A stretch of DNA of 20,000 bases. Source: an uncultured virus (IMG/VR IMGVR_UViG_3300011969_000080). Its lineage: Duplodnaviria > Heunggongvirae > Uroviricota > Caudoviricetes. The notes under the pieces were generated by a model. It was given only the letters and a program-made list of their open reading frames with translations, ran no database searches and was not told the origin of the DNA. Shown here piece after piece: positions 1,124-20,000 of the stretch. How positions within the stretch are numbered: the first letter of the stretch is position 1; each line of letters begins with the position of its first letter. The translations under genes were made by a program, and so were the position numbers. The stretch is taken from the IMG/VR virus record IMGVR_UViG_3300011969_000080; one strand, 5' to 3'.

Positions 1124-1143
1124 CATGGACACTCTCTGGAACA
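950..1143 (+). ncRNA. Putative omegaRNA (scaffold overlapping the tnpB 3' end, guide from about 1124)
   Basis: Inferred from the established TnpB arrangement. The low-complexity C-terminal tnpB extension after NAARN is where the omegaRNA normally lies. Boundaries are approximate. Confidence 0.45.
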
Positions 1144-1439
1144 CGTGCGGCCGCCGCACCCTGCGCAACACCGCGTGCCGGAACCGCGTGCGCGCATCTG
1201 GGGACCCCTGCCACCTCCACGGGACCCGGGATGCCGACACGCTAGAAGGCATCGCAGGCCCGGACGTCGACCCTGCACTACTTGACGGCGCAGAGCCCCG
1301 CCGGCCAGCGCGGACCACCACCAGACGCAGCGCCCGAGTAGGGGCCCGCCGCAGGCTCACCGCAGCCCCGCGGCGCCGGCGCGCGGCCGCAGAACCCGAC
1401 GACGAGGCCGCCGAGTGGCTGCTTGAACTGGGGCTCTGA
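1125..1439 (+). CDS. Small protein with N-terminal C-C-C-H zinc-finger header (DUF5763-like) and Arg-rich tail
   Basis: MDTLWNTCGRRTLRNTACRNRVRASGDPCHLH fits CxxxTxxxxxC-x10-CxxH. Confidence 0.65.
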   Translation: MDTLWNTCGRRTLRNTACRNRVRASGDPCHLHGTRDADTLEGIAGPDVDPALLDGAEPRRPARTTTRRSARVGARRRLTAAPRRRRAAAEPDDEAAEWLLELGL

Positions 1440-4716: not shown

Positions 4717-5048
4717 CACCGCACGAGGCTTTCGCGACCTGGGTGGCCGCCAAGGCGGAGGAGGACCGGCTGGTCACTGAGGACCGCGTGTGGACGGTGC
4801 GGGAGGCCGCCGGGCGGTTCCGTGTGGTCGACTACGAACCGCTGCAATCCGCCGTCCTGGCGGCCGCGCTGGCCCGCCGGAAGGTCATGGCCACCTACCG
4901 GGCCACTGGGTCACCCGCCGCTGCCCGCCTGTTCTGGGATCTGACTGGCGGCGTGGACGGCCTGCTAGAGCCCGGGGACCGGGCCATTCCCGCCACCGAG
5001 ATTGAGCACGTCATCGACGCCCTGTTTTCCGACCCGGTGGCGCCATGA
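4713..5048 (+). CDS. Array paralogue 2
   Basis: GTG start overlapping the previous TGA; (M)TPHEAFATWVAA...IEHVIDALFSDPVAP. Confidence 0.82.
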   Translation: MTPHEAFATWVAAKAEEDRLVTEDRVWTVREAAGRFRVVDYEPLQSAVLAAALARRKVMATYRATGSPAAARLFWDLTGGVDGLLEPGDRAIPATEIEHVIDALFSDPVAP

Positions 5049-5404
5049 CACCACACGAGGCAATGGTTGTGTGGGGCGCCGCCACGGCGTCGTACCTGGA
5101 AGCACGCGCCGCCTCTGACAGCGCCCGCCGGGCGTGGTTTCTGTCACTGGTGGCAGGTCCGGGCTTCTATGACAACCCGGTAGCCCCCGCCGCGGTGGAC
5201 GCCACGCATTCTCGCTCCGTGCTCGCGTACACCGTCTGCCAGCGGGCCCGCGCCGCTGTGTGTGATGCCTACGTTGACGCTGGCATGCCGATGGCCGCGA
5301 GGCTGCTAGTCCAGCTGAACCCGCGGGGCGTGTTTGCGGCCGGCGGGCCGGGGCGCACTGAGGCCCTCATCGGTGCGCTGCTGATGGCTCCGGTGCGGCC
5401 GTGA
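5045..5404 (+). CDS. Array paralogue 3
   Basis: MTPHEAMVVWGAA...EALIGALLMAPVRP; ATGA overlap. Confidence 0.85.
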   Translation: MTPHEAMVVWGAATASYLEARAASDSARRAWFLSLVAGPGFYDNPVAPAAVDATHSRSVLAYTVCQRARAAVCDAYVDAGMPMAARLLVQLNPRGVFAAGGPGRTEALIGALLMAPVRP

Positions 5405-5414
5405 CCCGCCCGCC

Positions 5415-5442
5415 TTGCGCTATGGGTGGTAGCGCGGACGGT
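5415..5442 (+). promoter_or_regulatory. Class I promoter-like motif, array block B
   Basis: TTGCGC-N16-GACGGT-N8-ATG(5451). Confidence 0.7.
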
Positions 5443-5450
5443 ACTGTGAC

Positions 5451-5861
5451 ATGACACACCCGCCGGAGCCCCCAACGACACCCCACGCCGCGCTGGCGGC
5501 ATGGGGCACCGCCGTAGCCATCGCGCGGGTGGCGTGGGTGACATTCCACGCGGCCGAGGCCACCCACAACAAAGCTGCGGCGGCGTACTGCCGCTACACC
5601 GGTCCCACAGACGCCGTCGAGGCGGGGCTTTTCAAGGCAATAGGGGCCGCAGACACGGCGGAGGAGGCCACCTACGCGGTCTACGACGACGCGGCCGAGG
5701 TTGCGGTAGTCGCCCGGGCCGCAGTGTGTGCCGCGTACGACCACGCCGGGTTCCCGCAGGCCTTCCGGGCACTGGAGACCATCGCCCCCCGCTGGGGGGA
5801 CTGGGCCCCCGACCTCGAGGCGACCCTGGCCGCGCTGCTGGCGGAACCGGTGCGGGCATGA
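5451..5861 (+). CDS. Array paralogue 4 (block leader)
   Basis: MTHPPEPPTTPHAALAAWGTA...PDLEATLAALLAEPVRA. Confidence 0.85.
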   Translation: MTHPPEPPTTPHAALAAWGTAVAIARVAWVTFHAAEATHNKAAAAYCRYTGPTDAVEAGLFKAIGAADTAEEATYAVYDDAAEVAVVARAAVCAAYDHAGFPQAFRALETIAPRWGDWAPDLEATLAALLAEPVRA

Positions 5862-6244
5862 CGCCGCACGGGGCGATGATGGCGTGGGGTGCCGCGGCCA
5901 CCACCGCGCGAGAGGTGCTGGCGTCATTCCACGCGGCCGAGGAAGCCTACGACACAGCCGGGCGGGCGTGCTGCAGCTACAGCGGCCACTCCGGGGTAGT
6001 CGAGGCAGGGCTCCTCAAGGCGCAAAGGGCCGCAGGCACGGCGGAGATGCGCGCCTACGCCGCCTACTACGGGGCGCGCGAGGTCGCCGTGTCCGCACGG
6101 GCCGCGGTGTGCGCCGCGTACACCCACGCGGGGTTCCCGCAGGCGGTGCGGGCCCTGGACACCATCGCCCGCGACGAGCTTGACTGGTCCCCCGGCCTCG
6201 AAGACGCCATGACTGCACTGCTGTCGGCCCCGGTGCGGGCATGA
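5858..6244 (+). CDS. Array paralogue 5
   Basis: MTPHGAMMAWGAA...PGLEDAMTALLSAPVRA; ATGA overlap. Confidence 0.85.
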   Translation: MTPHGAMMAWGAAATTAREVLASFHAAEEAYDTAGRACCSYSGHSGVVEAGLLKAQRAAGTAEMRAYAAYYGAREVAVSARAAVCAAYTHAGFPQAVRALDTIARDELDWSPGLEDAMTALLSAPVRA

Positions 6245-6300
6245 CACCACACGGGGCAGTCATTGACACCGTGCTCGCCCCTCCCGCCGCCACCCCCTGA
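6241..6300 (+). pseudogene. Empty array cassette: 19-aa head+tail fusion MTPHGAVIDTVLAPPAATP
   Basis: ATGA-coupled start, head MTPHGA joined in frame to a tail VIDTVLAPPAATP*, with the whole variable middle absent. Confidence 0.75.
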
Positions 6301-6305
6301 GGGCC

Positions 6306-6333
6306 TTGCGCTGGGACCGGCCGCGCGGACAGT
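6306..6333 (+). promoter_or_regulatory. Class I promoter-like motif, array block C
   Basis: TTGCGC-N16-GACAGT-N8-ATG(6342). Confidence 0.7.
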
Positions 6334-6341
6334 ACTAGGAC

Positions 6342-6647
6342 ATGACCCCGGCACCAGATCCCCAGACGACGCCACGCAGCGCCCGCAGCGCCTTCTTCCA
6401 TCAAACCATGCGCCGCCTCGAAGTGGAGGCGTCGGATGCAAGCGAGGCGTACCTAACTGCGGGCTGGGACGCCGCGGTGGCCGCCGAGCGGGCCGCTGAG
6501 GGCTGCTGGGATGTGGCGGTGGACTACCCGCGCCCGGAGGACCACGCGGCCGCGGACGCCATCTGGGAGGCGCTGGATGACGCGGCGTACGCCACCGCAG
6601 ACGCCCTGACGTGCGCTCTGTTCGACCCACCCGTGGACTCCCGATGA
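6342..6647 (+). CDS. Array paralogue 6 (divergent block leader)
   Basis: MTPAPDPQTTPRSA...DALTCALFDPPVDSR. Confidence 0.75.
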   Translation: MTPAPDPQTTPRSARSAFFHQTMRRLEVEASDASEAYLTAGWDAAVAAERAAEGCWDVAVDYPRPEDHAAADAIWEALDDAAYATADALTCALFDPPVDSR

Positions 6648-7039
6648 GCGCCCTGACGCCGCACGAGGCGATGGTCACGTGGGGCGCCGCGGTGGTCGCC
6701 GCCCAGGCAGGGCGGGTGCGGTTCCACGCAGCCGAGGGGGCCTATGCCGCGGCTTCGAGAGCACGCCGCAGCCACGGCGACCGCGCGGGGGTCCCCCATG
6801 AGACACTATTCAAGGCGGAAGTGGCCGCCGGCGAAGCGGAGATGCGCGCCTGGGATGCCTTCTACGATGCGGCCGGGGCAGCCACGGTCGCCCGGAGCTC
6901 GGTGTGTCGCGCATACGTCCACGCTGGGGTCCCGCAGGCAGTGCCAGCCCTGGACACTGCCGCTCCCGGGGGGCTTGGCTGGTCCCCGGGCCTGGAGGAC
7001 GCCCTGTCCGCGCTGCTGCGGGACCCGGTGTGGCCATGA
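6644..7039 (+). CDS. Array paralogue 7
   Basis: MSALTPHEAMVTWGAA...PGLEDALSALLRDPVWP. Confidence 0.85.
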   Translation: MSALTPHEAMVTWGAAVVAAQAGRVRFHAAEGAYAAASRARRSHGDRAGVPHETLFKAEVAAGEAEMRAWDAFYDAAGAATVARSSVCRAYVHAGVPQAVPALDTAAPGGLGWSPGLEDALSALLRDPVWP

Positions 7040-7425
7040 CCCCGCACGAGGCGATGGCCGCGTGGGGCATAACCGTAGCTGCCGCGCAGGCGGCACGTGT
7101 GCTGGCCGACCACGCGGGAGACGCCTACGACAAGGCCGCACTGGCAGAGGATGCGTGCTACGGCCACTCAGAGGACGTCGAGGAGGAGCTCGTCACAGTC
7201 GCCGGGCGGGCGGCTAGGGGGGCGGCGAACGACGCATACGCCACCTACGCCGGGGCGTTCGAGGCCGCCGTGTCCGCCCGAGCCGCGGTGTGCGACGCCT
7301 ACGTCAGCGCCGGGCGCCCACGGGCAGTGTTGGCTCTGGGTGCTATCGCCTGCGGTGCCCTCGACTGGTCCCCGGACCTCGAGGACGCGCTGGACGCGTT
7401 GCTGCGGGACCCGGTGCGGCCATGA
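7036..7425 (+). CDS. Array paralogue 8
   Basis: MTPHEAMAAWGIT...PDLEDALDALLRDPVRP. Confidence 0.85.
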   Translation: MTPHEAMAAWGITVAAAQAARVLADHAGDAYDKAALAEDACYGHSEDVEEELVTVAGRAARGAANDAYATYAGAFEAAVSARAAVCDAYVSAGRPRAVLALGAIACGALDWSPDLEDALDALLRDPVRP

Positions 7426-7778
7426 CAACACACGCGGCGATGGTCACCCTGGACGGCGCCATCCAGGAGTACCGACTGGCGGAGGACTGCGAGGTGGCCG
7501 CCCGCCACGCGCTGGCTGGGACCCACGCAAACGACTCGAACGCCACCCTGCTACCCCACATTCAGGCCGTAGAGAGCGCGCAAGCGGCGCAGGTCGGCGC
7601 CTCCGCTGCCGTCTGTGCCGCCCACCGAGCCGCCTTCTACGCCTACGCGGAGAATGGCCCTCCCGGGGCCGCGCTGCTGCTGCTCAGACTTATGGGCGTG
7701 GACATGGACGCCGTGGACGCGCCAGCGATTGAGTCGGCCATAAACGCGGTGTTCACCCCACCAGCCGCGACCGCCTGA
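7422..7778 (+). CDS. Array paralogue 9
   Basis: MTTHAAMVTL...IESAINAVFTPPAATA. Confidence 0.82.
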   Translation: MTTHAAMVTLDGAIQEYRLAEDCEVAARHALAGTHANDSNATLLPHIQAVESAQAAQVGASAAVCAAHRAAFYAYAENGPPGAALLLLRLMGVDMDAVDAPAIESAINAVFTPPAATA

Positions 7779-7787
7779 TCCGGGGCC

Positions 7788-7815
7788 TTGCGCTGCGGGC
7801 AGTCGCGCGGACGGT
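7788..7815 (+). promoter_or_regulatory. Class I promoter-like motif, array block D
   Basis: TTGCGC-N16-GACGGT-N8-ATG(7824). Confidence 0.7.
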
Positions 7816-7823
7816 GGGTGGGT

Positions 7824-8180
7824 ATGACACTACCGCCCGAGCTCCCGATGACAGCACACGCCGCGCTCCTGGTTGCGGCCTGCGCAGAGTACCGCCGGGC
7901 AGCGCAACTCTTCACCGCCGCGAGCGCCACCCGCGACGCGGCGATCATGGCCGGCGCCGGCCGGGCCGGGGAGCACGACCTGATAGTCCAAGACGCTGCA
8001 TACACGTCCGCCCACGCCGCGCTGTGCGAAGCTCGGCTCATATACGCGGACAGCGCCCCGGCCGGGTCTGCGCAGCTGCTACTTCAACTGACGGACCCGC
8101 TGATGTGCATTGCTAACGCGCCCGCCATGGCGGCAGCCGTCGCCACCGTGTTCGCCCCACCCGCGGGGCCCACCCAATGA
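7824..8180 (+). CDS. Array paralogue 10 (block leader)
   Basis: MTLPPELPMTAHAALLVAACAEY...AAAVATVFAPPAGPTQ. Confidence 0.82.
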   Translation: MTLPPELPMTAHAALLVAACAEYRRAAQLFTAASATRDAAIMAGAGRAGEHDLIVQDAAYTSAHAALCEARLIYADSAPAGSAQLLLQLTDPLMCIANAPAMAAAVATVFAPPAGPTQ

Positions 8181-8560
8181 CGAGGCTGCAGGGACCACCA
8201 CTGACACCGCACGCCGCCATGGCAGCGTGGGCCACGGCCTGCTCGGCTTACGACGCCGCGCGCACCACTACGCGTGCCGCTGTAGCGGCACGCGAGGCGC
8301 AGCCGGAGGCGTACGCGGGACCGGCCACCCCGGCCCGGGACGCCCTGCGCCGGAACTGGCTGGCCCTTGTACCAGCCCAGAACGCGGCGGAAAGGGCTGA
8401 GATCTCCGCCTACGGCGAGGCGTACCGGGCGTACTATGCTACTCACGGGCGGGACGTGGCCAACCTCTTCATGGGGCTCGTAGCCACCCGGCGGGGCCCC
8501 GGCCAGGTTGAGGCCATCATCGCGGCACTGCTCGCCCCACCCACAGGGCCAGCCCAATGA
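8177..8560 (+). CDS. Array paralogue 11
   Basis: MTRLQGPPLTPHAAMAAWATA...VEAIIAALLAPPTGPAQ. Confidence 0.85.
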   Translation: MTRLQGPPLTPHAAMAAWATACSAYDAARTTTRAAVAAREAQPEAYAGPATPARDALRRNWLALVPAQNAAERAEISAYGEAYRAYYATHGRDVANLFMGLVATRRGPGQVEAIIAALLAPPTGPAQ

Positions 8561-8907
8561 CGCCGCAAGAGGCGATGGCCGCCTGGGCCATGGCCTGCTC
8601 GGAGTATGACGACGCCCAAGACGCCTACCGCGCAGCCGGGGCCGCCTACCGCGCAGCCGTCACGGGGCCCCTCACCGTCCGAAAGGAACTGATCACACGG
8701 GGTGGTCTCGCCGAGGGCGTCCTGGCCGCGGCACGCAAGGCGGCGCGCAGCGCCCACGCCCACGCGTTCCTGGCCTACAGCACAGCTCACGGGACGGACG
8801 TGGCCGACCTCTTCCTGCGCCTCGCCCCCACCCAGACTGTGTGCCCCGGGCGGGTCGAGGACGTCATCGCCGCCCTGCTCGCCCCGCCCACTGGGCCCAC
8901 ACGATGA
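8557..8907 (+). CDS. Array paralogue 12
   Basis: MTPQEAMAAWAMA...VEDVIAALLAPPTGPTR. Confidence 0.85.
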   Translation: MTPQEAMAAWAMACSEYDDAQDAYRAAGAAYRAAVTGPLTVRKELITRGGLAEGVLAAARKAARSAHAHAFLAYSTAHGTDVADLFLRLAPTQTVCPGRVEDVIAALLAPPTGPTR

Positions 8908-9296
8908 CACCCCATGAGGCGATGGCCGCCTGGGCCGGGGCCTGCGCAGAGTTCGAGTCCCTCGACGCGGAGCTCGACGCACTCACCGCAGCCCTCAGTC
9001 GGCCTGTATACGCGTCGGGACAGTTCCCGGGGTCCAAAGACCGGGCGTGGCTCGCCGCCTACGACGCTTACGCCATCGCCGCCCTGGTCGTCCGCCACGC
9101 ACACAGCGCCGCCTACTGCGCCTACGAGGACAGCGCCCCCGCGGGGGCCGCGCAGATGCTGGACCGGCTCGTGGGCGACAGGGTGTACGACACGGACGTG
9201 CTCGCCGTCGAAGCGGCCATCGCAGCGGTGCTCGCCCCACCGCTGACCCGCCTACCCTGCGTCGCCGCCAACCGGGTGGGCGGTGCGTGGACATGA
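8904..9296 (+). CDS. Array paralogue 13 (tail reads through the next promoter motif)
   Basis: MTPHEAMAAWAGA...VEAAIAAVLAPP plus a 17-aa extension spanning a degenerate class I motif (9257-9284). Confidence 0.82.
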   Translation: MTPHEAMAAWAGACAEFESLDAELDALTAALSRPVYASGQFPGSKDRAWLAAYDAYAIAALVVRHAHSAAYCAYEDSAPAGAAQMLDRLVGDRVYDTDVLAVEAAIAAVLAPPLTRLPCVAANRVGGAWT

Positions 9297-9700
9297 CACA
9301 GCTGCCGGAGACCCCGATGACACCCCACGAGGCAATGGTCGCGTGGGGCGCCGCAGTGGCGGCGACACAGGTGGCCGCGGAGGGGGTACGCGCCGCCGCG
9401 GTCGCCTACGTGGCCGCCTCCGGGGAGTACTACGACACCCCGCCTACCCAGGAGGCCGCGGAGGGGCGCCGGGCAGCGGCGGTGGTTGCCGCCGGGGTGG
9501 AGACGGGCGCCCTGGCCACCTACGACCGCGCGTGCGAGCACGCCATGTTCCTCCGGGGTGCGGTGTGCGACGCGTACGCCCGCGCCGGGTTCCTATGGGC
9601 CTTCGAGGCCCTGGGGACACTCGCCCCCGACAGGCTGGGCTGGACCCCCGACCTCGAAGACGCCCTGGCCGCGCTGCTGGCAGCACCGGTGTGGCCATGA
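9293..9700 (+). CDS. Array paralogue 14 (block leader)
   Basis: MTQLPETPMTPHEAMVAWGAA...PDLEDALAALLAAPVWP. Confidence 0.85.
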   Translation: MTQLPETPMTPHEAMVAWGAAVAATQVAAEGVRAAAVAYVAASGEYYDTPPTQEAAEGRRAAAVVAAGVETGALATYDRACEHAMFLRGAVCDAYARAGFLWAFEALGTLAPDRLGWTPDLEDALAALLAAPVWP

Positions 9701-10056
9701 CGCCCCACGAGGCGATGGTCGCGTGGGGCGCCGCCTGCGCCCTGGAGAGCGGGGCCCGCGCCGCCAGGGAGGCCGCGTTCGAGGCGGCGCTCGCCGTGCC
9801 CTTCGGAGGGTCGCCTAGCCGAGCCGGGATGGTGGCCGCGTTGGAGGGCTACGAAGCTGCGCTGGACGTGTGGCAGGCCGCGCAAGCACAGGCCCGCGCG
9901 ACCAGCGTCACAGCCTGCCGGGCCTACGGCCGGGCGGTGGGCCAGCACGCCACGGACCTGCTCCAGTTGTTGTGCCCGCTGGGGCTCACAGACGACGCGG
10001 GGGCGGTAGAGGACGCCATAGCCGCGACGTTCGCCCCGGCCGCCGTGACCGCCTGA
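9697..10056 (+). CDS. Array paralogue 15
   Basis: MTPHEAMVAWGAA...VEDAIAATFAPAAVTA. Confidence 0.85.
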   Translation: MTPHEAMVAWGAACALESGARAAREAAFEAALAVPFGGSPSRAGMVAALEGYEAALDVWQAAQAQARATSVTACRAYGRAVGQHATDLLQLLCPLGLTDDAGAVEDAIAATFAPAAVTA

Positions 10057-11403: not shown

Positions 11404-11688
11404 ATGCCAAACCGTAGCGCCCAAGAGAACCTCGACCGGGCCGCCGACCGCCTAGAGGCGCTGGCCCGCTGGCCCGGCAAGCTGTTTGACCTCCACGGCG
11501 CAGGGCCGCGCCACGACGACGGGCTTGAGTACGACGGCGCCCACGCCGCCGACGTGAAGAGGCAGGCAGGTCGGGGCCTCACCGGGGCCATCCTCCGCCC
11601 CAAGAAGCGGTGCTTCGGTTGCCACAAGAAGCTCCCCCGCAAGCTGGTCGGCGACTACTGCGAGCCCTGCACAAAGAACCGCACCTGA
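11404..11688 (+). CDS. Small protein with C-terminal CxxC...CxxC zinc ribbon
   Basis: RBS AGGAG; CFGC...CEPC. Confidence 0.7.
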   Translation: MPNRSAQENLDRAADRLEALARWPGKLFDLHGAGPRHDDGLEYDGAHAADVKRQAGRGLTGAILRPKKRCFGCHKKLPRKLVGDYCEPCTKNRT

Positions 11689-11719: not shown

Positions 11720-12715
11720 GTGACCCACGACAGCACCCAAACCGGCAAGCTGCGAGCTCGCCAGTCCTGGCGACGCTGGCTCATTCCGGCCGCCGCGGCG
11801 GCGCTGGTGGTCCTGGTAGGCGCCTGCAGTGGCGGTGACACCCCGGGCACACCCGCCAGCACGCCCGGGGCAACAACGACAACCCCGCAGCCTACGGCCC
11901 CGCACGCCGGCGTGCCTGTGTCACCCCCACCTACCCCAAACGGGACCGTTACCGTGACCACCACCCGCGTGACACTGCCAGCATACTTCGTCGGTGCCAA
12001 CTCTGGGGCCGGCACGACGTTCGGCCTCTACCGGGAGTTCGTGCGAACCACGGTTCCCGCTGGCGCCACGCCGGCACAGAAGGCCAGGGCCGCCGTCGCA
12101 GTGGCGATGAACGCCCAGCCATTCACGAACTATGAGCCCTACGTGCAGCCCTGGTCCGGGACCAAGGTCGAGAACGTCACGGTCACCCCGAGCCTGATCA
12201 CCATCACGCTCAGTGGGCCCGGCGCGACCGGCTTCACCTCTGAGCAGACCAGGCTCGGCGTGCAGGAACTCGTGTGGACCGCGACCGCCGCCGTCGGTCG
12301 GGGAAACATCCCGGTCAAGTTCGTGCTCACCGACGGATCCACGAAACTGTTCGGCACCTACCCCACTGCCCTGGCCTACATCCGGCCGGTCAGGGATCTG
12401 GCGTATCTGGACCTTGCACCCATCTGGATCACCCTCCCCGAACGTGACCAAGTGCTCCGCGCCGGAGTGCCGGTGGTGGCCAAGGGTGAATCCTGCGCCT
12501 TCGAAGCCACAACGGCGTGGACGCTGAGCAGGAACGGTAGCACCGTCAAGTCCGGAACAACCATGGCCACCAGCGGCTGCCCGCTGCGCGGCACGTGGAG
12601 CGTAGCCCTGGGCAAACTCGGACCCGGCCGGTACACATTCCGAATGTACGAGGCCAGCATGCGGGAGGGCGTGGGCGTGGTCGCCGAAACGTCAAAACCG
12701 TTCACCGTCAAGTAG
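11720..12715 (+). CDS. Lipoprotein with GerMN-like and Gmad2 immunoglobulin-like domains
   Basis: Signal peptide with lipobox LVGAC, Pro/Thr linker, LYREF / QELVWTATAA (GerMN-like), and IWITLP...GESCAFEATTAW...GTW (Gmad2-like). Confidence 0.8.
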   Translation: MTHDSTQTGKLRARQSWRRWLIPAAAAALVVLVGACSGGDTPGTPASTPGATTTTPQPTAPHAGVPVSPPPTPNGTVTVTTTRVTLPAYFVGANSGAGTTFGLYREFVRTTVPAGATPAQKARAAVAVAMNAQPFTNYEPYVQPWSGTKVENVTVTPSLITITLSGPGATGFTSEQTRLGVQELVWTATAAVGRGNIPVKFVLTDGSTKLFGTYPTALAYIRPVRDLAYLDLAPIWITLPERDQVLRAGVPVVAKGESCAFEATTAWTLSRNGSTVKSGTTMATSGCPLRGTWSVALGKLGPGRYTFRMYEASMREGVGVVAETSKPFTVK

Positions 12716-12777
12716 CACCACCTGGTGGGCGCGCCAGCAGCCCCTATTTGTGCCACAGCCTGTGGCCCAAATGGCCA

Positions 12778-12811
12778 GTGGGTCTCCCGGCGGGCCTCGG
12801 CCGCCCACAGT
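12778..12811 (+). promoter_or_regulatory. Class II promoter-like motif (GTGGGT-N22-CACAGT-N7-ATG)
   Basis: Same geometry at 14942, 17104, 18495, 19002 and 19903 (N26 at 17705). Confidence 0.7.
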
Positions 12812-13280
12812 CCACGTCATGAAGCCCCCTAAGCACTGCGCCGTCCCCGGCTGTGGCACTGGCCCGCACCCCGAGCGGCGCAAGGTGGTGGGAAACCCGG
12901 CCTGCTGCGCCACGCACAAGAACACGCCCGCCGCCAGCCTGCCTACCGTGGTCGCCCGGACCCCCGCGCTCCCGCCCACTGCCCCCTACCGGGTTCCGGG
13001 GGTCTTCAACAGGAAGCAAGATGAGAAGCTTCACGCCGTCATTGCTGCCCTCCTGTCGCCGGGGATGCAGGTGCTGCCGGCGGACGGGCACCAGGCGTGG
13101 CCCCTGTACGTGGCCAGCTACGGCGAGTTCAGCAGGGTCTGGCTGACCAACACCCGAGGAGGCGCCGGCACCATTTCAGTCAAGGCGTACGAGTTGGCCC
13201 CCGCGGACGCCGTGGTTCTCCCCAGCCCCGAGGAAGTCGAGGCGGCCGTGGCCCGTGGCGATGTCAGTGTGTACCACGTG

Positions 13281-14667
13281 CCCCCTCCACGAACGAGTGG
13301 GTTTTATAGGCGACACAACTCGCGCGGTTCTGTCAGGTTCTCGGAGGGACTGCGTGCTTGCAAAGGGTGTACACCCGGGCCCCACCCGGGAGTAGGACTA
13401 CCGGGTCGGCGCTGTGAACCTGCGCGGTGCGACGCGTTCGGTAGTCCGGATGCCCGTCTGAGCTCACGGCAGCCGGCGTCCGTGGCAGCTGCGTGAGGTG
13501 AACTCTCAGATGCTTAGCCCAGACACCCGGCTGGTCACAGCGGTTGATGTTGAGGCGCATCAGCGCAAGGAGGTTGTTCATCCGTGACATGTTGCGGAAC
13601 GTCCACCGCCGCGACCGGAGGTGCTGACGCACAACCGCCAGCTTGGGGTCCAACGCACCCGTGGAGTAGTGCGCCGGTATCCCCGCACGCCAGGCGGTCT
13701 GAGCTGTCAGCCGCTTGTCCCACTTCCGCACCCAGCTCCCGGCCGTCGGCAGGTCCGCGCCCAGCACGGCATCCCGGAACGCGGCCCACTCCTGCGGGCT
13801 GTGGAAGGCGTCTTTGAGCAGGGCCCGGAAGTGGTTGCCCATCCTGCGTTGCCCGTCGGCGCGCAGGGCGTCAGCAGCCCTGACGTACAGGTGGTGCTCG
13901 CACCTGTGCTGCTTGACCCGTGGCCATACCGCGCGCACCGCGGCCGCTATCCCGCCATCGGCGTCAGAGACGACCAGCTCCGGCCTGCCAGGCAGCGTCC
14001 GTAGGAACGCCTTCCACGCTTCGGTGTCGTGCGCCTTCGCGGCGGTCAGCGCCCACAGACGGCCGCGCACCTGGCCGGCCGGGTAGCCCCACACGGCAAG
14101 GATGGAGAACAGGTCCTCGCTGCCAGAGCCGCGCGGGTTCGTCCACTTGAACAGGGTGGAGTCCAGCACCACGGTCTGCGGCCACTCCGGTTCGGCGTAC
14201 GCGGCGGCAAGGGCGGGACCGTAGCGGCCTACCCAGTCCGAGGCGCTCTGGCCACTCACCCTCCGGTCGGCGTCGCCGTCGCGAGAGACAACAAGCCTCT
14301 TGACCGCGTCGATGTAGGTGGCCCCACGGGCAACATCAACGAGCGCGGCGGCCACTTCATCAAGGGTGTACACGCTCCCGGGGGTGGCCGCTAACCCGTA
14401 GCCATCTTTGCCGCACTGGTCACAGGTGTGCCCGGCCTCGTCGTGGCGCGGCACCGCGAACGTGAACCCGTGCTTGTCTGGCTTCCCGTCCGGCCGGGTG
14501 AAGAAACAGCGCAGGCGAGCCCGGTGCGGTGTGCCGTAGGTGCCCTCTCGGTGAACTACGGAGTCCGGATGCTCCGCGCATCGCGGCAAGGTCACATCGG
14601 CGGGGCGAGACACCTCATGATTCTACCATGTGGCTAAGACATAAAACCCACTCGTTCGTGGAGGGGG
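13281..14667 (-). mobile_element. IS256-family-like (Mutator-type) insertion sequence, 1387 bp
   Basis: Perfect 27-bp TIRs CCCCCTCCACGAACGAGTGGGTTTTAT (13281-13307 and 14641-14667); 8-bp TSD ACCACGTG (13273-13280 and 14668-14675). Confidence 0.93.
13333..14613 (-). CDS. IS256/Mutator-like transposase with N-terminal zinc-binding region
   Basis: VVLDST; LVVSDADGGIAAAVRAVWP...HRCEHH (IS256 D...CxxH signature); lies between the TIRs. Confidence 0.85.
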   Translation of the reverse strand: MSRPADVTLPRCAEHPDSVVHREGTYGTPHRARLRCFFTRPDGKPDKHGFTFAVPRHDEAGHTCDQCGKDGYGLAATPGSVYTLDEVAAALVDVARGATYIDAVKRLVVSRDGDADRRVSGQSASDWVGRYGPALAAAYAEPEWPQTVVLDSTLFKWTNPRGSGSEDLFSILAVWGYPAGQVRGRLWALTAAKAHDTEAWKAFLRTLPGRPELVVSDADGGIAAAVRAVWPRVKQHRCEHHLYVRAADALRADGQRRMGNHFRALLKDAFHSPQEWAAFRDAVLGADLPTAGSWVRKWDKRLTAQTAWRAGIPAHYSTGALDPKLAVVRQHLRSRRWTFRNMSRMNNLLALMRLNINRCDQPGVWAKHLRVHLTQLPRTPAAVSSDGHPDYRTRRTAQVHSADPVVLLPGGARVYTLCKHAVPPRT

Positions 14668-14941
14668 ACCACGTGAGCTCGCGGGCCTGGTGGCTCAGCG
14701 TCCGGCGCCGCCACGTGGGTGAGCACCCCACAAAGCGCGCAGCCCTAGCCAGCGCAGCTGTCGCAGTTGGCGTGCTCGACTGGCAATCCTACGCCTACTG
14801 GGAGCTCCACAAGCTTCCCGAGGACCACCTCGACCTGGCGATCCAGCTGGCCCCCAGATGCGCCAGTGTCGGCGACCTGCTCGCCGCGGTGAGTGCCCTG
14901 TACACGCCGCCGGCCGCCACCGCCTGAGCTCCCCCGGCGGG

Positions 14942-14975
14942 GTGGGCGCTCTACGTCCCCGCGGGCCCCCACGGT
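14942..14975 (+). promoter_or_regulatory. Class II promoter-like motif
   Basis: GTGGGC-N22-CACGGT-N7-ATG(14983). Confidence 0.7.
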
Positions 14976-14982
14976 CGGTCCC

Positions 14983-15726
14983 ATGACCACCACCACGAAC
15001 GCTCTCAAGTGCGGCCACAACGGCTGCCCCACCAAGCCCACCCCATCCCTGCGCACCCCAGGCAAGCCGACGGACCTCGCCTTCTGTGGCGACCACCAGG
15101 GTGAGGCCCGCCGCGTGGCGCCAGCAGCCACCCGGCTGCAGCCGGCCGCAGCCCCCGTAGTTGCCCCGATGTTCGCGGGGGACAAGAGCACCGCGAAACG
15201 CGAGGCCCTCATGGGCTCCCTGGTCGAGGCGCTGATCCCGGCAGAGACTCGCGTGATAGTTGCCGGCACACACAACGGCGCCCGCCCGCCGTGGCCCGTC
15301 TACTACGACGACAACACGTTCCCCGGCATGGCCCGACCCGGCTCTGCCTCAGGCTGCGGCATTATCACCCCCGTGACCCGCATCGCGCCCGCCACCGCCG
15401 AGCTGCCCACCCCTGGGGAGGTCGCCGCTGCCGTGAAGTCCGGCATCGTTCGGGTGGCCAAGCCAACCACGGGCTACCCCTACCAGCGGGCCATGTGGGA
15501 CGTGCGCGTTGCCGGGGACCGCGTTGGCTCGTACACGACCAAGCGGGACGCGATGACGATGGTGCCGGCCGCCATGGCCGTCGCTGCGTGGCACGCGCCG
15601 CTGGCCGACATCCCCACCGAGCACCTCGGGGCCGCCGCCCAGATCGCTCAGGAGTACGGAAGCCCCGCCGAGCTCGTCGTGGCCGTGGCCGCCCTGTACG
15701 CCGACCCGGCCGACACCGCCAGCTGA
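14983..15726 (+). CDS. Zinc-finger-header protein with array-like C-terminal tail
   Basis: CGHNGC...FCGDH header; paralogue of the interrupted gene; ends LVVAVAALYADPADTAS. Confidence 0.82.
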   Translation: MTTTTNALKCGHNGCPTKPTPSLRTPGKPTDLAFCGDHQGEARRVAPAATRLQPAAAPVVAPMFAGDKSTAKREALMGSLVEALIPAETRVIVAGTHNGARPPWPVYYDDNTFPGMARPGSASGCGIITPVTRIAPATAELPTPGEVAAAVKSGIVRVAKPTTGYPYQRAMWDVRVAGDRVGSYTTKRDAMTMVPAAMAVAAWHAPLADIPTEHLGAAAQIAQEYGSPAELVVAVAALYADPADTAS

Positions 15727-15782
15727 ACGGGGACACCAGCCCCTTTGGAAAGTTTTGGAACTTTTGGACTTTTTGGAAACCC
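15681..15782 (+). repeat. About 102-bp direct repeat, copy 1 (gene tail plus AT-rich TTTTGGA tandem)
   Basis: Colinear with 16977-17078; includes four (T)TTTGGA units at 9-10 bp spacing. Confidence 0.8.
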
Positions 15783-15810
15783 TGCTCGCCGGCCCCCACG
15801 GTCATGTGTC

Positions 15811-15891
15811 ATGGCCACCCCTCGCAAGACCTGCGCCCCGCCTGGCCGCGCTACCCGACCGGGTGGCCGTCCTTCCCAGAAAGATGCGTGA
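15811..15891 (+). pseudogene. Orphan 5' remnant of a zinc-finger-header gene
   Basis: CACGGT-N8-ATG; MATPRKTCAPPGRATRP aligns with MKPPKHCAVPGCGTGP (12819), with the second Cys changed to Arg, then an early stop. Confidence 0.55.
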
Positions 15892-15895
15892 CCCC

Positions 15896-16909
15896 ATGCA
15901 CAGCGAAACCGCAAACCCGCCGGTACGAAACGCGCAGCGGCGGGCCCGCTATGCGGCAGCGCTCACCCTCCTGCTCGCCAGCGCGCTGTCCGTGGCAGCC
16001 CTGGCCACGTCGCAGGAGGTTGCATCCGCCGCAACAACCAGCATCAACCAGTGCAACAACATTGACGGCAGCCCGAGCGGCGCCACGACAGGACTAACCT
16101 GCACCGTGACCGTCGTCAACACGATCAACGGAAACACCCGCGGCTCAACAACCACCGTAACCCGGCAATGTTCCCTAGGACCGTGCCCGCCCGGTAATGG
16201 CACGTTCACGACCACATCCACATCCCTGGTCACCACCGTCACCCAGTGCAACGGCTCAGCCAACGACGCGGCACCACCCCTGGTCACGTGCCGCGTCAGC
16301 GTCACCAACAACATCAGTGCGGGTACGCCCGGCGGAGCGCCCGTGAGCACGGCGAGCGTCAACCAGTGCGTAGGCTCCGGCACCGGCGGCGGCAAGTACG
16401 ACGGGTCCGGCCCGCTCATTTGCAACCCGTACCCGGCCAGCACAACAGGGGCCACCGTCACCCAGTGCAACGGCTCAGCCACGGGCGGCGGCTCAACGGT
16501 GGCCTGCTCGGTGGCGCCCACATCCAAGGTCAGCGCCGCAATCCCGCTGCGCGTCAACCAGTGCAACGGCACCGGCAACAAGGGCGGAACCCTGGTCACG
16601 TGCTCGGTCAGCATCACCACCAACATCACCCGCGGCGCCACAGCAGGAACCCCTGGCACGCCAGGCACACCCCAGGGCGCACCCGGAACCTCAGGCACAC
16701 CAGGTGCGGCGCCTGGCGCCGGCGGCGCGCCGGGAACCTCAGGCGGGCCGGCGCAAATCACCCGCGTGCCCACCGGCGGAATAGCGTCCGGTGACGGCTC
16801 AACTTCCGGCCTACAACACGGCGGGCTGCTCGGGCTCGGCGCCGGCCTGCTCCTGGCTGCGACAATCACCTTCCGCCTCCGGGGCCTCGCCGGACGTTAC
16901 GGTCGATGA
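15896..16909 (+). CDS. Secreted Thr/Cys-rich repeat surface protein with probable sortase-type anchor
   Basis: Signal peptide, repeated (V/I)(T/N)QC(N/V)G(S/T) units, G/T/P linker, VPTGG motif followed by a hydrophobic helix and basic tail. Confidence 0.8.
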   Translation: MHSETANPPVRNAQRRARYAAALTLLLASALSVAALATSQEVASAATTSINQCNNIDGSPSGATTGLTCTVTVVNTINGNTRGSTTTVTRQCSLGPCPPGNGTFTTTSTSLVTTVTQCNGSANDAAPPLVTCRVSVTNNISAGTPGGAPVSTASVNQCVGSGTGGGKYDGSGPLICNPYPASTTGATVTQCNGSATGGGSTVACSVAPTSKVSAAIPLRVNQCNGTGNKGGTLVTCSVSITTNITRGATAGTPGTPGTPQGAPGTSGTPGAAPGAGGAPGTSGGPAQITRVPTGGIASGDGSTSGLQHGGLLGLGAGLLLAATITFRLRGLAGRYGR

Positions 16910-16976
16910 GCGAAAACCCCGAACGGGGCGCAGGAGGCCGCCAACGCCTGGCTATCAAGGTAGTCGCCGGCCCCGC

Positions 16977-17078
16977 GGCTGTGGCCGCCCCGTACACCGC
17001 CCCGGCCGACACTTCCAGCTGAGCGGGGCCCGGGCCCTTTTGGAAAGTTATGGAGCTTTTGCGCTTCGTGAAAAACCC
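16977..17078 (+). repeat. About 102-bp direct repeat, copy 2 (orphan gene tail AVAAPYTAPADTSS* plus AT-rich motif)
   Basis: GGCTGTGGCCGCCCCGTACACCGCCCCGGCCGACACTTCCAGCTGA versus GGCCGTGGCCGCCCTGTACGCCGACCCGGCCGACACCGCCAGCTGA; the AT-rich core matches 21/23. Confidence 0.8.
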
Positions 17079-17103
17079 GCACCCATCCTTCCCACCCGGG
17101 AGG

Positions 17104-17137
17104 GTGGGTGCTCCACGTCCCCGTCGGCGCCCACGGT
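17104..17137 (+). promoter_or_regulatory. Class II promoter-like motif
   Basis: GTGGGT-N22-CACGGT-N7-ATG(17145). Confidence 0.7.
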
Positions 17138-17144
17138 CACAGCC

Positions 17145-17630
17145 ATGACCAAATCTCCCCTCAACGCCGGCCGCGCCCAGTTCACCTGCGGCAGTCGCAA
17201 CACTCGCAGCACGGAGCCCTGCGGCCGCCTAGTGACCCGCGCCACCTCCGAGGCAGGCACCGGCTGCGGTGTCGCCTCCCACGCCCACACGCCGAAAGCG
17301 AACCGTGCAGCGGGGCCGGCGGCCAGCGTGCGCCCCCCGGTACTCACCCCCGTCGCCGACGGCAGCTACGTGGCCGCGTGCGCTGACTACAACGCCGCCG
17401 CTGCCCGAGCCGCGGCCGCCCGAGCCGACGCCCAGGAGGACCGGGACACTGCCGCGGGTGCGGGCCGCACCTATGACGACGCACACGGTGACCTTCACGA
17501 CGACGGTGGTACCAACCGCCGTGCCTTCATCGAGGCCGCGGCCCGGGCGGCCTGTGAGTCTGAGGATCGCGCCGACGAGGCAGACGCCGCCCTGCGCGAG
17601 GCCGGCGCAGTCATCCGCCACGGCGGCTAG
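17145..17630 (+). CDS. Zinc-finger-header protein with Ala-rich helical payload
   Basis: CGSRNTRSTEPC...CGVASH header; payload VAACADY resembles array paralogue 10 (VAACAEY). Confidence 0.75.
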   Translation: MTKSPLNAGRAQFTCGSRNTRSTEPCGRLVTRATSEAGTGCGVASHAHTPKANRAAGPAASVRPPVLTPVADGSYVAACADYNAAAARAAAARADAQEDRDTAAGAGRTYDDAHGDLHDDGGTNRRAFIEAAARAACESEDRADEADAALREAGAVIRHGG

Positions 17631-17749
17631 CCCCCACGCAGCCGCACCCCTCACCGGCCCCGTACACCGCAGCTGGTGTGCCCGCAATCCCACGACTCGT
17701 CCGGGTGGGCGGTAGCCCGCGCCCGCCCCGGGCCCCCACAGTCCCCGAC

Positions 17750-18460
17750 ATGACAACCACCGAACCGCTGTTCTGCACCACCTGCCCACCCCGTTTCCGC
17801 AGACTTATCGGGAAGGAAGAGCGCCGCGTAGGGCGCTGCTGGGAGCACAAGAACGCACTCGTCGGCGGTACGCCCGCAACCGCGGCCCGCGGCGCCGGGC
17901 ACACCCCGCTACCCATGCCTGCACTGGTAGCGCTGGTGGAGGTCCCCGCACCCGCCTACGGTGATGGGTTCGCCGCCCGCGAGGCTGAGGACCGGGCCTA
18001 CGAAGCTGAGCACGGCCCCGCCCAGGTGGCCGCGACCCGCGCTGCCGCGGCGGCCCGCGAAACTCTCAGCGCCGCGTGGGACGCGTGCGAGGGCAAGTCG
18101 CTGCACGGTCCCGAGAGCCGGGCCCGCTTCGCAGCCAACGACGCCTTTATGGCTGCTGAGAAGGCAGAGAAGGTCGCGTACGCACGGGAGACAGCCATCG
18201 AAGGCGCGCAGGACGACTACCGTGCCCTCGAGCAGGACGTCAAGGACACCACCTGGGCTGCCTGCAGCGCTGACGCCGCCTACTGGATTGCGCAGAGCAC
18301 CCACAAGAGGATGCGCTCCACAGCCAGCGCGGATGCCTACGCCGCCGCGGGGTGGGATGCGGTAACCACCGCGAAGCTGCGCCACGCCGCAGACGACGCC
18401 CTGGCTGAGGCCGACGACGCCTGGCCGGCCACCATGGACGCCGCCCGCGCGGTCCGCTGA
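17750..18460 (+). CDS. Zinc-finger-header protein with Ala-rich coiled-coil payload
   Basis: MTTTEPLFCTTC...RCWEH; CACAGT-N7-ATG upstream. Confidence 0.8.
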   Translation: MTTTEPLFCTTCPPRFRRLIGKEERRVGRCWEHKNALVGGTPATAARGAGHTPLPMPALVALVEVPAPAYGDGFAAREAEDRAYEAEHGPAQVAATRAAAAARETLSAAWDACEGKSLHGPESRARFAANDAFMAAEKAEKVAYARETAIEGAQDDYRALEQDVKDTTWAACSADAAYWIAQSTHKRMRSTASADAYAAAGWDAVTTAKLRHAADDALAEADDAWPATMDAARAVR

Positions 18461-18470
18461 CCTGAGGAGC

Positions 18471-18500
18471 ACCCACTCGGAACGTAAGCCCCGGGTGGGT
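18471..18500. repeat. 30-bp palindromic-arm site ACCCAC-N18-GTGGGT (inverted partner at 18978-19007)
   Basis: 25/30 identity to the reverse complement of 18978-19007; the right arm doubles as the class II motif. Confidence 0.7.
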
Positions 18501-18535
18501 GTCCCACGTCGACGACGGCCCCCACAGTCGAGCGC

Positions 18536-18970
18536 ATGACCACACACATCTGCAACAACCCCAACACGAGCGGCACCGGCCCGTGCAGGCGCACGTTTAC
18601 TGACCCGGCCGTGTCCTGCGGCGTCACCCACCGCGGCGGCATCGCCGTCACGGCTGCCCCAGCCCAGGCCCCAGTCGCTTACCGTGGCCACGGGGGAGTC
18701 GCAGGCTACACCTTCGCCGCAGACACATACTGTGTTGACTGCATCCTTTCGGTACTCCCGGAGTACCACACCGATGGCATGGTTGGTGACACCCGGGACG
18801 TCCACGGGGTTGTGGACGTCGACGGTGCGCTGTGGGACGTTGCCATCGACAGCGGCGTCGACCGTGAGGACGAGTACAGCTTCGACAGTGACGACTTTCC
18901 CAAGGTCATCCTGCAGGGCATGACGAACGAGTCGACCGAGTGCGGCAAGTGCTCGGCCAGCATCGGCTGA
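18536..18970 (+). CDS. Zinc-finger-header protein with acidic CxxC...CxxC payload
   Basis: CNNPNTSGTGPC...CGVTH header; YCVDC...DSDDFPKVI...CGKC payload; class II motif at 18495-18528. Confidence 0.82.
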   Translation: MTTHICNNPNTSGTGPCRRTFTDPAVSCGVTHRGGIAVTAAPAQAPVAYRGHGGVAGYTFAADTYCVDCILSVLPEYHTDGMVGDTRDVHGVVDVDGALWDVAIDSGVDREDEYSFDSDDFPKVILQGMTNESTECGKCSASIG

Positions 18971-18977
18971 CCCACTG

Positions 18978-19007
18978 ACCCACTTAGGGCTTACGTCCCG
19001 GGTGGGT
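18978..19007. repeat. 30-bp palindromic-arm site, inverted copy
   Basis: Core GGGCTTACGT is the reverse complement of ACGTAAGCCC in the left site. Confidence 0.7.
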
Positions 19008-19042
19008 GTCCCGCGTAGGCGACGGCCCCCACAGTCCCCGGC

Positions 19043-19657
19043 ATGACAACCACCGAACCGCTGTTCTGCACCATCTGCCCGCCCCGTTTCCGCAAGCTTC
19101 GCGGGGAGGAAGAGCGCCGCGTCGGTCGCTGCTGGGAGCACAAGAACTCCATCGTCGGCGGCACGCCGGGAAGCGGTGTCAGCGGCCCGGCCCGCGGCCC
19201 CGTCACCGCGTATGCCCCAGACGGCATGACCCCGGAAGACTTCGAGGACGAGCAGGACACCAAGGTGGCCGGCTATGTCCTCGCCGGCCCAAACCCCGAC
19301 GGGACCAACGAGCTCACCCTGGCCGCCACCGTATCCGTGTGGGCCCGCGACGCCGCCCAGATCGACATCGCCAACGCGGTCGGGACCGCCTACCAGGCCA
19401 GCTGTGTACACAGGGGCGGCCCCACTGTCAACCGCACCTTCTTCGTCGAGGAAGACGCGCGGCCCACCCATGGGCACCGCTACTACGTCACCGTGGAGAA
19501 GCACGTATACCCGGCTGGCGTCGAGGGAGCGCACGCGCTGGCCGGCGCGGCACCCACGCGCGAGTACCCGGAGGCCTACGGGCACGACGTCCTGATCACC
19601 GCACTGGCCGAGGCCCGGGAGTGCGCCCTGGACGCCGGCTGGGTTGGCGCCCCCTGA
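19043..19657 (+). CDS. Zinc-finger-header protein; header nearly identical to that of 17750, unrelated payload
   Basis: MTTTEPLFCTIC...RCWEHKNSIVGGTP; class II motif at 19002-19035. Confidence 0.82.
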   Translation: MTTTEPLFCTICPPRFRKLRGEEERRVGRCWEHKNSIVGGTPGSGVSGPARGPVTAYAPDGMTPEDFEDEQDTKVAGYVLAGPNPDGTNELTLAATVSVWARDAAQIDIANAVGTAYQASCVHRGGPTVNRTFFVEEDARPTHGHRYYVTVEKHVYPAGVEGAHALAGAAPTREYPEAYGHDVLITALAEARECALDAGWVGAP

Positions 19658-19726
19658 TCGGGAGGCTTGCGCCAAGACCGGCACAGTTGTGCTGCTTCTG
19701 GCACACTCGCGCCCTGGTCTGGGGGC

Positions 19727-19754
19727 TTGCGATTGGCCGACCGCCCCCCACAGT
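19727..19754 (+). promoter_or_regulatory. Class I promoter-like motif with no downstream ORF start
   Basis: TTGCGA-N16-CACAGT. Confidence 0.55.
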
Positions 19755-19762
19755 AGGCATCG

Positions 19763-19890
19763 GTATCAAGCCGCTGCGGAACCTATAGGGAACCGGGCTC
19801 GCGGTGACATCTAGTGTTGCGGGACATCCAAGGGCCCGTACCTGTCCGAAGGGACGCTCCACAGCGAGCGTCCCTTCGTGCTGTCCCGCC
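19763..19890 (+). ncRNA. Candidate structured small RNA
   Basis: Follows a class I motif; perfect 13-bp hairpin 19847-19878 nested within an 8-bp stem 19819-19826/19882-19889. Confidence 0.35.
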
Positions 19891-19943
19891 CCTGTGCCCC
19901 GGGTGGGTGCCCAACGTCGACGCGGACACCCACAGTCCAGGCC

Positions 19944-20000
19944 ATGAGCGAAAACATCTGCGGAAGCACCGCCACCCGATCCACCCCCACTTGCAAGAAC
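19944..20000 (+). CDS. Zinc-finger-header gene, 3'-truncated by the window edge
   Basis: Class II motif at 19903-19936; MSENICGSTATRSTPTCKN resembles CGSRNTRSTEPC at 17145. Confidence 0.7.
   Translation, partial: MSENICGSTATRSTPTCKN

Follow-up and report, generated by a model that had tools for sequence, protein, structure and literature searches.

A common upstream cassette and N-terminal Cys/His heads on otherwise unlike bodies in a row of orphan genes from an uncultured virus record

The 20,000-nucleotide stretch of IMG/VR record IMGVR_UViG_3300011969_000080, listed as an uncultured virus of the Caudoviricetes and referred to here in its entirety as the window, holds seven complete genes (g1125, g12819, g14983, g17145, g17750, g18536 and g19043) whose translations begin with a head of 32-48 amino acids (aa) carrying three cysteines and one histidine, continue through a Pro/Ala/Gly-rich linker and end in one of six kinds of body. 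Seven head genes, from g12819 onward and including the truncated g19944, are preceded by a common DNA cassette. This cassette was missed in a preliminary description made from the sequence alone; as a trait shared by these genes, it carries no less weight than the head. Three head subtypes can be told apart, one of which (B) sits on unrelated bodies and is under purifying selection, and bodies also occur elsewhere without a head. Neither the heads nor most of the bodies belong to a described family. We favor, at a probability of roughly 0.45, the reading that these genes encode a lineage-specific, co-regulated set of two-part proteins that has spread through shuffling of cassettes and in which rapidly evolving bodies have one kind of docking or binding module, the head, in common.

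Under this reading, the genes would be separately transcribed accessory genes in soil actinomycete-type DNA of about 70% GC that is rich in insertion sequences (IS). The cassette of about 50 nucleotides (nt) would act as a promoter/operator giving rise to leaderless mRNA and would tie the genes into one regulon. The net basic head would hold one structural zinc and would be joined by a disordered linker to the variable body, bringing differing bodies to one kind of target, either nucleic acid or a single hub protein. Duplication, and recombination onto new bodies, would act on cassette and head together.

The preliminary description had placed a Cys-Cys-Cys-His module of 30-45 aa at these gene starts, and translation recovered one at the start of all seven complete genes, together with the first two cysteines visible in the 19 aa of g19944. 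At least three cysteines lie within the first 45 aa in 7/7 head genes, compared with 0/23 of the other listed window proteins; at the cysteine background of the window proteins (61/3410), the probability of such a start is 0.047 per gene. Matches to a bare Cys/His regular expression are not rare, with 12 of 20 in the six frames falling outside gene frames, so the signal is carried by position and context. GC content at third codon positions is 0.79-0.88 in all head genes, indicating that their frames are coding. Heads are net basic (3-8 Lys and Arg versus 1-5 Asp and Glu), and the Pro/Ala linker described earlier is present, with P, A, G, T, S and V making up 53-77% of the 30 aa past the histidine. 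The window has a GC content of 66-75%, and matching DNA was found in three runs of one soil metagenome study. Single metagenome contigs span head and body of g17750 (17751-18462) and of g19043 (19044-19956), so these fusions are not assembly chimeras; short-read unitigs end within the near-identical start of head B.

Ligand spacing and sequence divide the heads into three subtypes. Subtype A (C-x9/10-C-x10/14-C-x1-4-H) comprises g1125 (C8-x9-C18-x10-C29-H30/H32), g17145 (C15-x10-C26-x14-C41-x4-H46), g18536 (C6-x10-C17-x10-C28-x3-H32) and g19944 (C6-x10-C17), and 4/4 members share, by eye, the first knuckle [TI]-C-[GN]-x3-T-x2-T-x2-C. Subtype B (C-x2-C-x17-C-x2-H) is represented by g17750 and g19043 (both C9-x2-C12-x17-C30-x2-H33), and subtype C (C-x4-C-x17-19-C-x2-H) by g12819 (C7-x4-C12-x17/18-C30/C31-x2-H34) and g14983 (C10-x4-C15-x19-C35-x2-H38). 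The Cys/His ligands are invariant in 5/5 subtype B, 3/3 g18536-type and 2/2 subtype C sequences, and 27 of the first 34 residues of the subtype B head are invariant. It is quite unlikely, in our estimate, that these are three unrelated small zinc fingers at neighboring N-termini with separate roles and only co-regulation in common. Such a view would fit the hhalign profile-profile probabilities of 0.3-0.4% between subtypes and the varying first-knuckle spacing (x2, x4, x9-10). However, the profiles, with about 40 positions and 2-5 sequences each, are too small to exclude common descent, subtypes B and C have C-x2-H-K-N after the third cysteine in common, and position in the protein, cassette and linker type match in 7/7 genes of a 7-kb row. 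Within the power of such short profiles, the same hhalign values give the outcome, non-homology by profile-profile comparison, that had been named as refuting the earlier proposal of one header, and they lend no support to a single header family.

Family searches did not place the heads. The resemblance of g1125 to DUF5763-type fingers, suggested in the preliminary description, was not borne out by Pfam-A, neither with the whole protein (E <= 0.1) nor with its first 40 aa (E <= 10), although HMMER filters may lose very weak matches. Pfam gave no match at E <= 10 for six of the seven heads. The g14983 head drew EsV_1_7_cys (PF19114) at 14.4 bits (E 0.035) against a gathering cutoff of 25, and this candidate was rejected, as was DUF6011 for head B, a structural lead alone that had no Pfam match at E <= 10. 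NCBIfam and PADLOC contained no family for the heads, and g1125 aa 6-32 weakly matched phrog_16145 (E 0.0051). A PDB sequence search with the three head profiles returned chance rows only (E 1.2-1.5), and the head A profile gave five weak matches in 151 Streptomyces genomes, at about the level of chance (E 0.003-0.01; E 0.455 for one genome alone).

The cassette consists of a GGGTGGGTG box, 21 nt, CCCACRGTC, 6 nt and the ATG. Its 8-mer CCCACRGT occurs at 11 sites in the window, all on the plus strand, versus 2.93 expected, a count reached in 0/200 shuffles. At 7/11 sites an ATG follows after exactly 7 nt, and all seven belong to head genes; the bare 8-mer is also found before g2329 and at two places without a gene start. 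A 56-nt profile built from six copies found the seventh in 7/7 leave-one-out runs (E 8.5e-4 to 4.3e-11), with the best non-cassette site at an E value of at least 0.0098, and the seven cassettes outrank every other site in the window. The same cassette precedes the g19043 ortholog on L001, a 4-kb relative in the metagenome contigs. Searching the cassette pattern more widely yielded four single chance matches in species-representative genome contigs, the Streptomyces one (L004) being unrelated, and one unrelated match in viral contigs; GGTGGGTGYCC with two mismatches is not enriched alone (46 versus 40.5 expected). g2329 itself (2329-3033) has an MTT start 8 nt past the CCCACGGT 8-mer and encodes a Cys/His-rich orphan with neither a Cys head nor a full cassette.

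No GGAGG-like Shine-Dalgarno site was found between cassette and ATG. The CACRGT hexamer keeps A2 and T6 of TANNNT, and its T lies 8 nt upstream of the first base of the ATG. According to a study of Streptomyces coelicolor (PMC4895711), 21% of primary start sites in that organism give leaderless mRNAs, with the -10 motif TANNNT and a preference for AUG. The placement of the T is as expected for the -10 element of a leaderless transcript, and the cassette is most likely a leaderless-type promoter/operator, as judged from its sequence. In four of nine folded intergenic regions (those of g17145, g17750, g18536 and g19043), the GGGTGGG box supplies the 3' side of a hairpin by pairing with CCCACCC/CACCCAC farther upstream; two of the nine regions reach z-scores of -2.69 and -2.59, and the other seven fold no better than shuffles. 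Two cassettes, at 15795 and 17130, are preceded by GC hairpins with T-tracts. Blocks of four direct TTTTGGAA-like repeats with 9-10 bp spacing (15743-15778 and 17038-17075), a repeat seen 7 times in the window versus 1.6 expected, each follow a short GC hairpin and lie immediately ahead of a cassette. These blocks and hairpins are candidates for a terminator plus phased T-tracts, or for a protein-binding array.

The earlier description of the head as portable was supported by searches with heads and bodies. Across all-versus-all BLASTP of 30 window proteins, no pair of head genes matched at E <= 0.01 beyond g12819/g14983 and g17750/g19043. The g17750/g19043 match is confined to aa 1-54 (70% identity, E 5.6e-27), and g12819 and g14983 are paralogous, with E values of 3e-6 and 1.6e-6 for the two halves of g12819. 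The seven complete genes thus carry six kinds of body, with these two as the one paralogous pair among payloads described earlier as mostly unrelated. A search of 5.8 billion clustered proteins located head B in the two window proteins, in P0002, which is orthologous to g19043 (66%), in P0003, nearly a copy of g17750, and in P0004, which has a body matching neither g17750 nor g19043. The subtype B head is thus about 85% conserved across three bodies unrelated by BLASTP. In metagenome contigs, head B occurred at one locus, L001, whose upstream open reading frame (ORF) matched neither the P0004 nor the g17750 body; the head B alignment gave nine pattern matches in genome contigs, none of them confirmed, and none in viral contigs.

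Bodies, in turn, occur without heads. Residues 55-133 of g18536 correspond to phrog_7422 (E 2e-12, 48.3 bits, profile positions 9-81 of 87), a family of unassigned function that includes Rhodococcus phage E3 gp82 and Mycobacterium phage Madruga gp56. By tblastn, this body stands alone in 15 actinophage records, as stand-alone genes of 89-91 aa that start at the body where checked. Of nine database relatives of g18536, seven lack the head, which is present only in P0006 and P0007 besides g18536. For g14983, an exhaustive search of 1.84 billion representatives found three remote relatives, matching aa 102-243 only and without a Cys head. That such bodies occur on their own elsewhere identifies the heads as additions to them. 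No relative of g17145 was found; the g14983 family was absent from 401 sampled genomes of the class, an empty answer that is uninformative. Save for the headless g18536 body, no relative appeared in 2.9 million viral contigs, 50,697 phage records and 72,556 plasmids. Near-identical DNA to the window was absent from plasmids and phages, and tblastn gave no match for g14983, g19043 and g1125 against phages or for g14983 against plasmids.

Head and body also differ in how they evolve. Between g19043 and its L001 ortholog, nonsynonymous (dN) and synonymous (dS) divergence are 0.012 and 0.31 in the head (codons 1-35), the latter amounting to 6 synonymous differences only among 7 in all, and 0.25 and 0.47 in the body, giving dN/dS ratios of about 0.04 and 0.5, respectively. 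A dN this low at a dS of 0.31 indicates that the head is kept by selection on the protein, while the body changes fast.

These observations bear on the closest known parallel for the cassette, the PeSLs of T4-type phages, which two published accounts (PMC2839356, PMC4122927) describe as short promoter-bearing repeats mediating recombination between unrelated genes. Like them, the cassette is a short conserved repeat, in some copies with a possible stem-loop, ahead of many unrelated small genes of unassigned function in a plastic region, and it is a candidate substrate for modular shuffling. PeSLs, in contrast, combine sigma-70-like promoters with terminators, occur in AT-rich genomes of phages and stop short of the gene, whereas the cassette is GC-rich, has no sigma-70 consensus match, abuts the ATG and leads into a coding head. 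A rather unlikely alternative is that the cassette is first of all a mobile regulatory unit of this kind, with the head carried along by adjacency or acting as a DNA-binding finger that autoregulates through the palindromic box. One cassette ahead of seven unrelated or distantly related genes would suit it, as would the GGGTGGG hairpins, the two cassettes with T-tracts and a metagenome contig in which another cassette copy is joined to g19944 sequence at 19953, a joint that also suggests further paralogs beyond the window. The lower dS of head B DNA between the two paralogs (0.19) than between orthologs (0.31-0.37) also speaks for it, but these values come from 4 to 7 changes. Moreover, the dN/dS of 0.04 at a dS not clearly below that of the body points to selection on the protein rather than the DNA, three different heads behind one cassette mean that mere hitchhiking does not account for the head, and the hairpin is missing from some copies, with seven of nine regions folding like shuffles.

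We consider it very unlikely that the head is an export address by which cargo enters virions or passes through a conjugative or secretion channel, in the way of the capsid targeting sequence of T4 internal proteins and in the narrow sense of the preliminary description. An identical head type on unrelated bodies, fast-evolving bodies, a body family otherwise found in actinophages and a region rich in mobile DNA would all be in keeping with such a role. Against it, no capsid, portal, protease, terminase, FtsK/TraB-type or secretion gene was recognized in scans of 12, 14, 20, 17 and 14 window proteins, covering only 20 kb of a contig of 133,593 bases, relatives are missing from the viral contigs, phage records and plasmids apart from the headless g18536 body, and folded zinc modules are unusual as export signals.

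The favored docking role is most likely for the head given what is generally known of small Cys/His modules, which likewise underlies the assignment of zinc. Spacings and alignments reveal two ligand pairs, retained in relatives, as in zinc-ribbon and treble-clef-like modules, and the three cysteines and one histidine most likely hold one structural zinc in a knuckle of this type. Structural comparison supplied leads only. For an ESM Atlas model of head B (aa 1-38; overall predicted local distance difference test score (pLDDT) 0.38), the nearest structures were small zinc-ribbon-like modules, under the bar of the tool, among them a DUF6011 cluster and the Cys4 module of actinobacterial UvrD-type helicases (template modeling (TM) scores 0.55-0.65 over 29-35 residues). 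The TM score against DUF6011 was 0.61 by query over 35 residues, again under the bar, and feature matches to DUF4428, NinD and the ClpX-type zinc-binding domain scored 0.82-0.84. For head A, the best Atlas match (0.76) was of no use, and a complex prediction combining the B heads of g17750 and g19043 with zinc gave no verdict (score 0.00). Within the g14983 body, aa 143-210 form a confidently modeled alpha-beta-beta-beta-alpha unit with a G-x-Y-x-T-K-R-D-A motif, which recalls a double-stranded RNA-binding domain (dsRBD) or a HicB-like fold as a hint only. Fold searches were weak, with a best E of 0.92 for Foldseek against PDB (several dsRBD rows), a best E of 0.36 against BFVD, and a best Z of 4.4 in a wide VIA search, where dsRBD- and HicB-like rows reached Z 2.6-2.9 over aa 143-210.

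Several findings weigh against the shared docking module. With homology among the three subtypes undetectable, a single shared target is an assumption. AlphaFold2 gave a pLDDT of 25-52 over g14983 aa 1-69 (below 50 over the linker, aa 41-69), and for g18536 a pLDDT of 45 overall and 46-50 in the head, with three short strands. On the side of the cassette, a sigma-70 consensus scan of 12600-20000 found 0 promoter-like sites, the -10-like hexamer begins with C rather than T, g1125 has a head without a cassette and g2329 the 8-mer without a head. The small number of differences behind the head B ratio adds to this, as does the occurrence of the whole family in only a handful of metagenome contigs. 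For g1125, a TnpB element ending about 40 nt before the gene may explain the missing cassette: the window opens with a TnpB-type gene (1-1113; OrfB_IS605, Cas12f1-like TNB), whose Rfam Transposase-2 RNA lies at 1020-1086. Other window genes, also orphans in scans of the window proteins, offered no clue to the head target.

Table 1. Head genes, cassettes and the inserted element in the window.
Feature	Coordinates	Strand	Description
g1125	1125..1439	+	104 aa; subtype-A-like CCCH head, Arg-rich tail; without upstream cassette; 39 nt past TnpB-associated RNA
Cassette of g12819	12771..12818	+	nhmmer E 2.2e-10; left-out E 8.5e-4
g12819 5' part	12819..13280	+	Subtype C head, linker and start of body, up to the IS
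IS256-like element	13281..14667	-	27-bp perfect inverted repeats; transposase 13333-14613; 8-bp target duplication ACCACGTG at 13273-13280 and 14668-14675
g12819 3' part	14676..14927	+	Rest of body; 34% identity to g14983 aa 172-246, E 1.6e-6
Cassette of g14983	14937..14982	+	Cassette profile
g14983	14983..15726	+	247 aa; subtype C head, linker, alpha/beta body with helical tail
15811 remnant	15784..15891	+	3' half cassette (nhmmer E 0.044) and 26-aa ORF with one Cys; upstream of secreted Cys-repeat protein gene
Cassette of g17145	17098..17144	+	Cassette profile; 14-bp hairpin using GGGTGGG box
g17145	17145..17630	+	161 aa; subtype A head, linker, Ala/Asp-rich body; orphan
Cassette of g17750	17702..17749	+	Cassette profile
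g17750	17750..18460	+	236 aa; subtype B head, linker, Ala-rich body
Cassette of g18536	18489..18535	+	Cassette profile; hairpin z -2.59
g18536	18536..18970	+	144 aa; subtype A head, linker, phrog_7422-type body (aa 55-133)
Cassette of g19043	18995..19042	+	Cassette profile
g19043	19043..19657	+	204 aa; subtype B head, linker, orphan body
Cassette of g19944	19898..19943	+	Cassette profile
g19944	19944..20000	+	First 19 codons of another subtype A head gene; window end cuts the rest

From 12.8 kb to the window end, all recognizable genes lie on the plus strand (Table 1). g12819 is split by an IS256-like element, so that the ORF read through to 13496 consists of IS sequence past 13280. The transposase matches Transposase_mut (Mutator-type) at 37.3 bits, above the cutoff of 21, and the IS256 NCBIfam equivalog at 33.7 bits, far below its cutoff of 150, which restricts the IS256 assignment to family level. 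A precise IS-free joint (13272 to 14668, 8 letters in common) is present in contigs of all three metagenome runs, indicating that the insertion is polymorphic in the population; the IS copy in run X3 differs at many positions, so related copies exist elsewhere. The remnant noted earlier at 15811 is a 26-aa ORF with one cysteine, located behind half a cassette. Behind this degenerate cassette, 15884-16909 encodes a secreted-looking protein of no known family, with repeated V-[NT]-Q-C-N-G, a Gly/Pro-rich stalk and a C-terminal hydrophobic anchor. Ahead of g19944, a 10-bp GC hairpin (19850-19875) lies within 19843-19883, and the X1 and X2 contigs diverge on both sides of this segment, marking either a hairpin region common to other loci or a structural variant.

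Elsewhere in the window, 4306-10056 carries 15 tandem paralogs of 101-136 aa with overlapping stops and starts, MTPHEAM-like at the beginning and ALLxxPVRP-like at the end. The array matched no Pfam, PHROG or NCBIfam family; its profile also matches g1524 (1524-2267) twice (E 3.3e-4 and 1.9e-9). A C-terminal tail A-[IV]-x-A-[LV]-[FLY]-x-x-P is seen by eye only in the array, g1524, g12819, g14983 and P0017, and comparison of the array profile with the head-gene bodies was not significant (hhalign E 0.084-0.44; hmmsearch E at least 0.32). A 94-aa ORF at 11404-11688 ends in a zinc-ribbon-like C-x2-C-x13-C-x2-C motif and has no family. The window contains no tRNA, and PADLOC recognized no family in it.

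Among known protein modules, the ClpX-type zinc-binding domain, DUF6011 and the Cys4 module of UvrD-type helicases resemble head B in their length of about 35 residues, ligand pairs 17-18 apart and tethering by a linker; head B differs in having no Pfam match at E <= 10 and a histidine as last ligand. The EsV-1-7 motif (PF19114) of brown algae and their viruses has the C-x4-C-x16-19-C-x2-H spacing of the g14983 head, which, however, scores below the cutoff and is one of seven heads. Polymorphic toxins and the T4 internal proteins with a capsid targeting sequence are sets with a conserved N-terminus and a variable C-terminus, and share with the head genes a constrained head, diverging or swapped bodies and clustered paralogs. 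In contrast to these systems, no toxin, immunity, secretion or virion domain was recognized in scans of the window proteins, and a Cys/His module of 32-48 aa is unlike their trafficking domains.

Zinc modules on varied domains and gene-shuffling promoter repeats are each known; here they are combined at the front of a row of orphan genes. Our search of open-access text brought up neither a description of cassette and head together nor the name DUF5763. A bolder version of the favored reading, which we regard as doubtful, is that cassette, head and linker make up a plug-and-play expression-and-docking unit of an undescribed actinomycete mobile element. By recombining at the 50-nt cassette and the coding sequence of the head, such a unit would capture foreign small genes, such as actinophage phrog_7422 genes, and place them behind a leaderless promoter controlled by one regulator, and its zinc head would tether the products to one hub, be it RNA polymerase, the nucleoid, or a transfer or defense machine. 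If true, bacteria would here have an analog of exon shuffling that builds effector repertoires and differs from both polymorphic toxins and PeSLs. The contrast between head and body in dN/dS suggests that the bodies may be engaged in an arms race, as anti-defense or effector proteins. Should the head prove to be a shared docking module, one pull-down experiment would reveal what this entire set of proteins, hard to interpret in any other way, binds to, and through a single regulator and type of promoter the cassette would give access to an uncultured soil actinomycete element.

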